Below, one piece after another: positions 1 to 7,532 of a DNA stretch of 64,000 nucleotides. The notes under the pieces were generated by a model. It was not told where the DNA came from. It saw only the letters and a list, made by a program, of their open reading frames with translations, and did no database searches. Both the position numbers and the translations under genes were made by a program. The stretch is from NCBI RefSeq assembly GCF_054482525.1, contig NZ_CM137006.1; one strand, written 5' to 3'. Position 1 is the stretch's first letter; every line of letters begins with the position of its first letter.

Positions 1-3000
1 CGGTAACCGTATCACCCGCCGCCGCGCCCGTCACCTGGCCGCTGATGGTCTGCGCCACGTCCGATTCCGCAGCGTTGATAATATCGTCGCTCGCCACCGG
101 ATTAATGGTTACACCCGGCAGCGCGGTATTGACCTGCACATTATGGCTGGCGGAATTGCTGTTGCCTGCGCTGTCGGTGACGTTCGCCGTCACCGTGTAG
201 CTGGCTTCGCCCAGCGCACCTACTGCGGAGGCTGGCACCGTGGTGCTCCAGTTGCCTGCGGCGTCCGTCGTGGCAGTGTAATTTTGCCCGTTCAGCGTCA
301 GCGTAATTGTGGTGCCAGCTGGCTGATTACTGGTGCCGGAAATTTGCAGATCCGCGCCTTTTTCGATGGCGTTAATCACGTCATCGGTGGCGATGGTGTT
401 AATGCCAATGGTCGGCGCGGTCAGATTCACTGTAACCGTGCGGCTGGCATCATCGCTATTGCCTGCCGCGTCGGTAATGCTGGCGGTGACAGTTTGCGGG
501 CCGCTGCCCAGCGCCGTGACATCCGCCGCCGGAACGCCGACGCTCCAGTTGCCGGAGGCATCCAGCGTCGTGGTGTAGGTTTTACTGTTTAGCGTGACGG
601 TGACGACATCCCCCGCTTCTCCGCCAGTGCTGGAACCGGAAATCACCAGCGCCTGCCCGTGTTCGGCGGCGTTAATAATATCGTCGCCCGCAATGGTGTT
701 GATGGTGAGTACCGGAACGGTGAGATCCACCGCCAGATTATGCGTGGTGCTCGCCGGGTTGCCCGCTTTGTCATTGACCGTGGCGGTCAGGGTGTGGCTG
801 CCATCGGTCAATGCCTCAAGATCTGCCGCCGGAATATTAATACTCCAGCTACCGTCGGCCTGTACCGTTGCCTGATACGTCTGCACGGTCGGGCTATTGA
901 GCGTTATCGTAACAATCTGCCCTGCCTCGGCAGTGGTGCTGCCGCTCACCGTCACACCCGCATCGGCTTCGCTGGCGTTGACGATATTGTCGCTGGCAAC
1001 GGTATTGATAATGATGGTCGGGGCACTGCTATCGACGCTGTAGTTATGCACCGCCGAGGCGCTATTGCCATTAATATTGCTGACGCTGGCCTGCGTGGAG
1101 GCGCTGCCATCGGTTAATAACGCTAAATCGGCAGCGGGAACGGTGGCACTCCAGCTACCATCGCTCGCCACGCTGGCAGTGTAATTTTTCCCGCCAAAGG
1201 TGACGGTGACCGTTTGCCCGGCTTCTACATTCGTGGTGGTGCCGGAAAGCGTTAAATCAGCGCCTTTTTCTGCGCCGTTAATCACATCGTCCGTGGCGAT
1301 AGTGTTGATGGTGATAGCCGCCGGAGTGAGATCCACCGTTACCGGATGCGTAATGCTTATCGGATTTCCGGCGCTACTTTCCCCGGACACGGCAATATTA
1401 ATCGTCCCCGCAGGCCAGGCGCTAACCTGCGCCGCCGTGACGCCCACACTCCAGCTGCCATCGGCCTGCACCGCGGTGGTGTATTCCACATTATTAATCG
1501 TGACGGTAAGCGGCGTGCCTTCTGCCAGCCCCGAACTGCTGCCGGTGACCACCAGCGCCTGCCCGTGCTCGATGATATTGACCACATCATCGCCCGCCAC
1601 CGTATCGACCCGCAGGCCGGGCAGATTGGCGTCGATGGTGATATCCCGCGTGCCGCTGCCGGTGTTGCCGTTTTGATTGGTGACCGAGGCGCTCACCGTT
1701 AAATCGCCATTGCCCAGCGCCTGAATATCTGCCGCCGGAACGCTCACGCTCCAGCTTAAATTGGCCTGCACGGTGGTGGTGTAAGTATTGCCGCCCAGCG
1801 TAATCGTTACCGTGTCGCCAACGGCGGCTCCAGTCACCTGCCCGCTGATGGTTTGCGCGACGCCCGCTTCGGCGGCGTTAATAATATCGTCGGTTGCCAC
1901 CGGGTTAATGGTCACGCCGGGCAGCGCGCTGTCGACCAGCACATTATGGCTGGCGGTGGCGCTGTTGCCGATACTGCTGGTTACCGCCGCCGTTACCGTG
2001 TAGTTGGCCTGGCCCAGTGCGGTTACCGCCGATGCCGGAACGGTGACGCTCCAGTTGCCGGAGGCGTCGGTCGTGGTGGTGTAATTTTGCCCGTTCAGCG
2101 TCACGGTGATGGCGGTATTAACAGGCTGATCGCTGGTGCCGGTAATCTGGAGATCGGCCCCTTTTTCGCTGGCGTTAATCACATCATCGCCCGCAATGCT
2201 GTTAATGCCGATAAGGGGCGCGGCGGTATTGACCGTGACGGTCAATGACTGGCTGCCGCTGTTTCCTGCGCGGTCGGTTACCGAGACGCTGACAGGATAA
2301 CTGCCGTCCACCAGTCCGCTGACAACAGAAGCCGGAACGCCCAGACTCCAGTTGCCGGAACCATCCACCACCGTGGTGTAATCGGAATTATTTAACGTAA
2401 CGGTGACAATATCGCCCGCCTGCGCGCCAGTAACCGTGCCACTGATGATTTGTGCCTGGGTGTGTTCCGGCGTGTTGATGACGTTATCGGTCGCCACCGG
2501 ATTAATGGTCACCACCGGAGGCGTGGCATCCACCAGCGCCACGCGTGAAACGCTGGTCGGGTTACCGGCGACATCGTTCACGCTGGCGGTGACCGTAGCG
2601 TTGCCGTCAGCCAGTGCGCCCACGTTGGCGGCGGGAACGGTCACGCTCCAGGTGCCGTCTGACTGCACGACGCCCTGATACGTCTGCCCGTTAAGCGTCA
2701 CCGTTACCGTCTGCCCCGGCTGGGCATCGGTGGTGCCGGTGATGGGCAGATCCTGCCCGCTTTCGGCGGCGTTGATGATGTTGTCGGCAGTCAGCGAGTC
2801 GATGCTTAAGGCCGGGGCCTGGCTGTCGACAGTAATGGTGCGGGAGGTGTCGCCAGTGTTACCGCTGATATTCGTGACCGTCGCGGTAATTTCCGCCGCG
2901 CCGTCTGCCAGGCTGCTGACCGCGCTGGCGGGGATGGTCAGGCTCCAGCCGCCACCTGCCTGAACGGTGGTGGTAAAAGTCTGCCCGGCGAATTTCACTA

Positions 3001-7521: not shown

Positions 7522-7532
7522 ACAGAGAGGTG

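Follow-up and report, generated by a model that had tools for sequence, protein, structure and literature searches.

Fibrillar adhesins of the RTX (repeats in toxin)/type I secretion system (T1SS) class are characterized by an N-terminal retention module, tandem immunoglobulin (Ig)-like extender domains and, at the C-terminus, a β-roll with a T1SS signal, and the criteria used here for this class were taken from the same work (bioRxiv 10.1101/2025.09.30.679566). The closest described system is O-island 28 (OI-28) of Escherichia coli O157:H7, for which a role in the early adherence of enterohaemorrhagic E. coli to the intestine has recently been demonstrated. In strain EDL933 its genes are tolC28 (z0608), rtxA28 (z0609), rtxB28 (z0615), hlyB28 (z0634) and hlyD28 (z0635) (PMC12758282). 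Deletion of each OI-28 gene lowers adherence to Caco-2 cells and colonisation of mice (Niu et al. 2025, PMC12758282), complementation being partial (PMC12758282, December 2025). OI-28 is activated by RstA through binding to a box that spans −294 to −280 relative to tolC28, and Ca2+ raises both its expression and the adherence of O157:H7; the experimental support covers O157:H7 and O145:H28 (PMC12758282). Here, we analyse a stretch of 64,000 nucleotides from contig NZ_CM137006.1 (RefSeq assembly GCF_054482525.1), referred to as the window. Its left 7.5 kb very probably represent the promoter-proximal end of a chromosomal OI-28/siiEA operon, which consists of tolC28, siiEA, hlyB28 and hlyD28, is followed by cueR and encodes a T1SS adhesin system. 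The feature as such is already known, since it belongs to a curated family at a known and experimentally studied locus, and it opens no new kind of biology. A modest gain comes from the evidence for a deletion scar in K-12, from the apparent coupling between hlyD28 and cueR and from reading the two RTX proteins of O157 as one gene.

Comparison with OI-28 of O157:H7

The layout of OI-28 was read from the annotated regions of E. coli SCU-102, PCN033 and O157 Xuzhou21. A first-pass annotation of the window, made from the letters alone, had already proposed the identity with OI-28, and this is upheld by the same site and layout in Xuzhou21, including the position between ybaT and cueR, the gene order and the overlap of hlyD with cueR, and by a tolC gene that is 97.6% identical at the nucleotide level in O157:H7 strains. 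The box for RstA is found at an equal offset and differs in one base. Further differences concern the adhesin gene, which in O157 is an open reading frame (ORF) of 6,719 codons with a TAG at codon 1462 and has been treated as two proteins, while the lineage of the window carries a single ORF of 7,227 codons with about five more repeats. As the TAG lies within one frame, a single gene underlies both RTX proteins of O157, each of which corresponds to one part of it. The system had been called probably known but poorly characterised in the first-pass annotation; the former holds, and the latter is out of date in view of the experiments on OI-28 in PMC12758282.

RefSeq labels the matching gene in near-identical genomes as 'BapA-related adhesin SiiEA', and from the NCBI-curated SiiEA family (NF047714) the gene shows no difference of substance. 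ECUMN_0527 of UMN026 carries the label 'adhesin for cattle intestine colonization'. Both the name siiEA and the cattle label are genome annotation carried over by analogy, not by experiment on the gene. A literature search for 'siiEA' returned one occurrence, an annotation label only, and the PCN033 genome paper contains no mention of the locus.

The adhesin gene siiEA

The 5′ part of siiEA (rtxA28/rtxB28 of OI-28) occupies positions 1–5737 on the minus strand and comprises codons 1–1912 of 7,227. The frame starts with an ATG (MSLIIDVISRK...) that is preceded by an in-frame stop, remains open for 1,912 codons from 5737 to base 2 and exits the left end of the window. Residues 1–234 match the complete model NF047714 (adhesin_SiiEA, model positions 1–229 of 229) with 500.3 bits at a cutoff of 425, and the N-terminal ~229 residues thus lie above the curated cutoff of the family.

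Three segments can be distinguished in the encoded polypeptide. The first, residues 5–132 (5342–5725, minus strand), is a prefix-like BapA_N domain (PF22783, 3.8e-19, model positions 4–122 of 123; NF033677, 69.7 bits), and an AlphaFold model of residues 1–118 is all-β with pLDDT values >90. A sequence search of the PDB with this domain yielded chance-level matches to NDUFA11 only. By analogy, it is presumed to be a periplasmic plug or retention module. The second segment is a Gly/Ala-rich hydrophobic stretch, AFPWGWLAGAAVGGGALGALLASGG, at residues ~128–152 (5282–5356, minus strand), followed by a Pro-rich linker that reaches residue 195. In the AlphaFold model the Gly/Ala-rich stretch has low pLDDT values and is devoid of regular secondary structure; its composition and hydrophobicity are kept across the family, as judged from an alignment of 40 homologous N-termini, and it presumably threads the TolC28 channel.

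The third and by far longest segment, residues 196–1912 (1–5152, minus strand), consists of Ig-like extenders of the Ca2+ type of ~100 residues each, 17 of them complete plus the start of an 18th. A repeat profile derived from the protein itself places these domains back to back from residue 196 onward, and the Ca_tandemer model (NF033510) matches 18 stretches in the part of siiEA contained in the window. The extenders match the RII tetra-tandemer of MpIBP (pdb-code: 4P99) with 6.2e-43 and 5IRB with 4e-28; 5IRB and 6XI3, which also matches the siiEA repeats, are Lap extender structures from Marinobacter. Taken together, the open codons, the family match, the Ca_tandemer stretches and the similarity to 4P99 substantiate the earlier assignment of this region to the first ~1,900 codons of a giant Ig-repeat T1SS adhesin. 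Its internal repetition, likewise noticed then, is seen at the DNA level as a unit of ~300 nt (~100 residues) and a higher-order repeat of ~1.8 kb with 74–79% identity. Tandem Repeats Finder reported no DNA-level repeats in window positions 1–7600, the siiEA repeats being too long or too dissimilar for it.

The gene had also been described as GC-rich, and the comparison with core genes bears this out, with 57–64% GC over positions 1–5500, 51–56% in ybaT/glsA and 36% in the spacer at 7001–7500. At second codon positions GC is 0.53 (GC2; ~0.40 in the neighbours), and at third positions it is only moderately raised (GC3 0.72 vs 0.56–0.68). Thr, Ala, Val, Gly and Ser abound in the product, which is reflected in the raised GC2, and amino-acid composition thus accounts for part of the high GC. 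As GC2 explains much of the excess and the codon-position analysis places tolC28 at core level, the GC content was set aside as a weak sign of foreign origin.

tolC28, its regulatory region and the right-hand edge

Upstream of siiEA, and on the same minus strand, lies tolC28 (5840–7195), an ORF of 451 residues whose product matches TIGR01844 with 415.6 bits (cutoff 225). It confirms the TolC-family gene that the first-pass annotation had placed here without giving a strand. A housekeeping TolC is ruled out by the score of 66 bits against the equivalog model NF007002, which has a cutoff of 495. No terminator-like site was detected by a terminator scan of the coding strand in the 102-nt spacer between tolC28 and siiEA (5738–5839, minus strand), which fits co-transcription of the two genes.

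The AT-rich region 5′ of tolC28 (7196–7504, minus strand; 36% GC) forms the right-hand end of the island. Over ~350 nt upstream of the gene there are 5 differences from O157, whose version of the region has promoter activity and binds RstA (PMC12758282). Pattern searches located a predicted RstA box, TAATTCAAATTTCC, at 7476–7489 on the minus strand, which agrees in 13 of 14 bases with the box TAATTCAAATTACC found exactly in O157. It lies at −294 to −281 relative to the tolC28 ATG, so that its offset agrees with the published one.

A terminator scan further identified the ybaT terminator hairpin, GCGCAGTACAGCCTGTACTGCGC, with a T-rich tail at 7499–7521 on the minus strand. According to the comparison with K-12, the junction between island and core falls at 7504|7505, within the 3′ arm of this hairpin. 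The accessory segment had originally been drawn to position 7532; its exact edge is at 7504|7505.

Genes beyond the left end of the window

The first 7.6 kb of the window are 100% identical to the corresponding regions of SCU-102 and PCN033; over 27.6 kb there are 3 single-nucleotide polymorphisms (SNPs) relative to SCU-102 and, relative to PCN033, 3 SNPs together with a single indel. The genes to the left of position 1 were read from these near-identical genomes and agree with OI-28 in site and order: in SCU-102 ybaT is followed by tolC, an intact siiEA of 21,684 nt, a T1SS permease/ATPase gene, a gene for an HlyD adaptor and cueR, the whole cluster being 26.7 kb long with four genes. In some genomes the 7.6-kb query gave matches of 9.4 kb, which were rejected as extra copies; they are misaligned repeats, and the genes there are 21.7 kb long.

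The ATP-binding cassette (ABC) protein is placed in the LssB subfamily by its match to TIGR03375 (836 bits) and aligns with HlyB over residues 9–700. Its first 160 residues contain no Cys, implying that the N-terminal domain is C39-like and not a peptidase. The adaptor matches TIGR01843 with 327.6 bits. An ABC transporter with a C39-like domain, a membrane fusion protein and a TolC-like outer-membrane protein are hence encoded alongside the adhesin.

The SiiEA protein of SCU-102 (7,227 residues) starts with the BapA_N domain (residues 5–132), the Gly/Ala-rich hydrophobic stretch (~128–152) and the Pro-rich linker (up to 195). These are followed by 56 contiguous repeats of ~100 residues (196–5771) and by 7 divergent Big_13 domains (5784–6508). 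The repeat profile thus yields 63 Ig-like domains, a type also indicated by the Ca_tandemer and Ig_like_ice models; they make up ~87% of the protein and match the tandem extenders expected of a fibrillar adhesin. Residues ~6570–6880 form FG-GAP_3/VCBS-type repeats, reminiscent of an integrin-like propeller and likely the ligand-binding region; domain scans revealed neither a vWFA nor a carbohydrate-binding domain there. A short RTX segment at residues ~7056–7143 (HemolysinCabind 2e-4, CyaA RTX 9.5e-5) and a C-terminal T1SS_VCA0849 target domain (TIGR03661, 32–36 bits vs a cutoff of 17.6) complete the architecture, so that the β-roll, albeit short and weak, and the T1SS signal are present in SCU-102, outside the window. 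The prediction that the ABC transporter, the membrane fusion protein, the RTX repeats and the secretion signal would lie to the left of position 1 is thereby borne out for all four in the near-identical SCU-102.

Integrity and distribution of the locus

Of the 5,426 E. coli genomes available in complete form, 958 contain tolC28, as a single chromosomal copy, in line with the accessory nature ascribed to the left 7.5 kb; 82% of the genomes are without the island. Among the carriers are PCN033, a porcine extraintestinal pathogenic E. coli (ExPEC), and CE10, a neonatal meningitis isolate. The island was reported to be absent from ExPEC (Niu et al. 2025, PMC12758282), a statement that does not hold for these two strains.

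Several observations weigh against an adhesin operon of the OI-28/siiEA type that is functional in the window strain. RTX repeats cover only a short region and match weakly, with one canonical GGxGxD motif and a HemolysinCabind value of 2e-4, and the RstA box of the window carries one mismatch. Since the window ends at codon 1,912, intactness rests on other genomes, and in 4 of 7 sampled genomes (PCN033, CE10, ETEC6335 and Xuzhou21) siiEA is flagged as frameshifted or stopped; it is annotated as intact in the remaining SCU-102, 19KM1776 and WL297, and its length ranges from 17.0 to 21.7 kb.

The locus could be a decaying remnant: inactivation of the adhesin or the transporter would then lie outside the window, and the promoter-proximal part would be the only one that looks intact. 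Besides the internal TAG in O157 and the frameshift flags in CE10 and ETEC6335, this is suggested by PCN033, which is so close to the window (3 SNPs and 1 indel) and yet has both siiEA and hlyD annotated as frameshifted. It is also in keeping with the complete loss of the island from most genomes and with an E. coli-like representative (L007:6000–11600) in which an independent partial deletion has left no more than pieces of tolC, siiEA and the ABC gene. However, the two frameshifted genes of the PCN033 record are each one C shorter than in SCU-102, siiEA at window position 2515 (L001:22515) and hlyD at L001:1355. The window has the C at 2515, and the siiEA frameshift of PCN033 is therefore absent from it; the missing bases in this older record, like single-base indels in older assemblies generally, may be assembly or sequencing errors. 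Moreover, the frame stays open over all 1,912 codons of the window, the genes of SCU-102, 19KM1776 and WL297 are intact at 21.7 kb, and the closest genome combines an intact 21,684-nt gene with adjacent transporter genes and repeats of the Ig-like adhesin type. We thus consider decay unlikely and favour an apparently uninterrupted adhesin system in the lineage of the window, which stands near SCU-102 and the porcine ExPEC PCN033.

In the Escherichia whittamii representative (L006:1–11600) the adhesin region is far shorter, with a longest ORF of 2,077 residues and the N-terminus out of frame. This was left uninterpreted, because the repeats may have been collapsed during assembly from short reads.

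Retention at the cell surface and related adhesins

LapA of Pseudomonas fluorescens and MpIBP of Marinomonas primoryensis follow the same plan as SiiEA, with an N-terminal module, Ig-like extenders rigidified by Ca2+, a region for ligand binding close to the C-terminus, a β-roll with T1SS signal and an ABC transporter of the LssB type. SiiEA differs from them in that its N-terminus is of the BapA_N type and has no conserved LapG di-alanine, in that its island is without lapD/lapG, and in that an FG-GAP propeller seems to form its ligand-binding region, while that of MpIBP contains sugar-, peptide- and ice-binding domains.

It was nevertheless considered whether SiiEA is a LapA-type adhesin whose display is switched by the LapG protease and the cyclic di-GMP receptor LapD, with cleavage at a TAAG at residues 97–100. 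The motif, of which ~0.05 chance occurrences are estimated from amino-acid frequencies for the first 200 residues, is followed by a Gly-rich stretch and presumably sits roughly at the position of cleavage in LapA; the LssB-type transporter and the extenders resembling those of Lap/MpIBP point in the same direction. Against it, the di-alanine (T/P-A-A-G) is not conserved in homologues of 47–60% identity, which have ADAAVG, TGEASG, AGEVAG and others instead. None of the four genes of the island is lapD- or lapG-like, and no match to the LapD/LapG families was found in 10 kb of downstream sequence of the Cedecea system, the closest one outside Escherichia. In addition, the N-terminal domain matches BapA_N, and among the NCBIfam matches of the N-terminal 1,912 residues no retention-module family appears. 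The variability of the site was judged from the 40 homologues, a diverse set obtained by an exhaustive HMMER search with the N-terminus; a word-indexed search with the N-terminal 186 residues returned only truncated Escherichia/Shigella copies. LapG cleavage was rejected as the likely mechanism on the grounds of the variable site and the lack of lapDG-like genes beside the Cedecea system, and a LapA-type switch is in our view very improbable. Tethering of BapA_N-type adhesins may differ from that of LapA, as they lack a LapG site and have a hydrophobic, Gly/Ala-rich segment that is conserved.

A pore-forming RTX toxin of the HlyA or MARTX type, as might be imagined from the HlyB/HlyD/TolC-type exporter, the weak RTX repeats, the C-terminal T1SS signal and the original O157 annotation as 'RTX family exoprotein', can practically be dismissed: the island has no acyltransferase gene (hlyC/rtxC), ~87% of the protein consists of Ig-like extenders of ~100 residues, the Pfam and NCBIfam output is confined to domains of the BapA_N, Ig-like, FG-GAP and RTX types with no toxin/effector domain or hydrophobic pore-forming domain, and the experimental phenotype is adherence.

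Salmonella BapA with its exporter BapBCD resembles the SiiEA system: in both, the adhesin has a prefix domain of the BapA_N type and Ig-like repeats in tandem, and a TolC/ABC/HlyD exporter is dedicated to it. BapA is much shorter, with about 3,800 residues. A related locus in Salmonella arizonae, which we take to be bapBCD, encodes proteins that are 56% (HlyD), 48% (ABC) and 29% (TolC) identical to those of OI-28. There, tolC adjoins the ABC gene, in contrast to its position upstream of the adhesin gene in OI-28. The systems of Enterobacter and Cedecea are closer, with HlyD proteins of 70–73% identity. On the basis of sequence comparison, BapA/BapBCD appears to be a second-tier relative only.

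The gene name derives from Salmonella SiiE, encoded in Salmonella pathogenicity island 4 (SPI-4), which PMC6272769 describes as a giant non-fimbrial, T1SS-exported enteric adhesin with tandem Ig-like domains. The likeness is one of general description; SiiEA differs in that it is classed as BapA-related by NCBI and has a BapA_N N-terminus. Between ybaT and cueR of SCU-102, PCN033 and Xuzhou21, no siiA/siiB-like (MotAB-like) accessory genes, as in SPI-4, were found.

Proposed mechanism

Gene content, domain architecture and position are established by the present data, and on their basis we propose the following scenario for the SiiEA system. Transcription of the operon would start at a promoter that lies upstream of tolC28 and is activated by RstA. 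SiiEA would then be exported C-terminus first through the LssB/HlyB-type ABC transporter, the HlyD adaptor and TolC28, the process being started by the C-terminal T1SS target domain and the short RTX β-roll. Outside the cell, the region resembling an FG-GAP/VCBS propeller and the Ig-like extenders, about 63 in number and dependent on Ca2+, are expected to fold and to form a long fibre. The BapA_N domain might be retained as a plug, with the Gly/Ala- and Pro-rich residues ~119–195 spanning the channel, and the fibre would promote adherence to the epithelium. The retention step and the function in the window strain are plausible by analogy with LapA and MpIBP.

The K-12 junction and cueR

In K-12 ybaT is followed by cueR, as stated in the first-pass annotation, at a distance of 124 bp (L003:5870–5993). 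K-12 aligns with the island allele up to window position 7505 and resumes 95 nt 5′ of cueR, inside hlyD28. The left breakpoint is located within the ybaT terminator hairpin, which is complete in the island allele only; with the junction inside its 3′ arm, K-12 retains the 5′ arm and the loop. The K-12 spacer, allowing for one missing base, encodes VVAVDIRTGKK/VLEYLLKPFNKAQEALRER*, corresponding to the C-terminus of HlyD28, which reaches the last residue of both the TIGR01843 profile and E. coli HlyD (pdb-code: 8DCK). The annotation pipeline PGAP likewise records a frameshifted partial pseudogene without N-terminus in spacers of the K-12 type, and this type of junction is common to 4,459 of the 5,426 complete genomes. 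Because K-12 keeps the frameshifted 3′ end of hlyD28 (~95 nt), the island-less state is a deletion derivative and not an empty target site. Consequently, of the earlier view that the segment is an insertion at the ybaT–cueR junction, the position stands and the insertion does not, and the scar argues against a simple "acquisition" of OI-28 by pathogens.

At the other end of the cluster, ~19.3 kb to the left of position 1, the ATG of cueR overlaps the stop codon of hlyD28 (ATGA; L002:716–719). The overlap is found in island-bearing E. coli, in E. whittamii and in Escherichia sp. E1V33, and its arrangement suggests that the copper regulator gene cueR may be translationally coupled to, or co-transcribed with, the adhesin operon. 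In Enterobacter, Cedecea, Lelliottia and Rahnella (HlyD 67–73% identical) the order adhesin–ABC–HlyD is kept with no cueR downstream.

Two linked readings may be put forward tentatively, although we regard them as rather doubtful: that the cluster is ancestral at its Escherichia site, and that BapA_N-type adhesins are tethered in a way unlike LapA. If the first were true, OI-28 would not be a recently acquired pathogenicity island, the K-12 sequence just 5′ of cueR would be a fossil of hlyD28, and the wiring of copper-regulator expression could differ between island-plus and island-less strains.

A second small accessory segment occurs between cueR and ybbJ, outside the window (L002:1–308, L004:27579–30031). 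In O157 it contains genes for two hypothetical proteins and, between them, a lipoprotein and an autotransporter adhesin of the YadA family, whereas cueR directly adjoins ybbJ in K-12.

Other features of the window

At 12566–12605, between ybaP and copA, the ybaQ segment of K-12 (L003:168–837, about 670 bp) is absent and ~40 nt of unrelated sequence are found instead. An IS200C transposase gene lies between adk and htpG (23754–24212, minus strand), adjoined by an Rfam match to STnc490 at 24222–24345. Judged from ORF sizes, the region from 27 to 64 kb looks like core genes (dnaX, acrAB, amtB, mdlAB, ppiD, lon, clpX). Rfam matches above the gathering score were obtained for sroB (13492–13575), naRNA4 (19256–19333), the dnaX frameshift element (27968–28032), the signal recognition particle RNA (44836–44932) and sraA (62572–62667).

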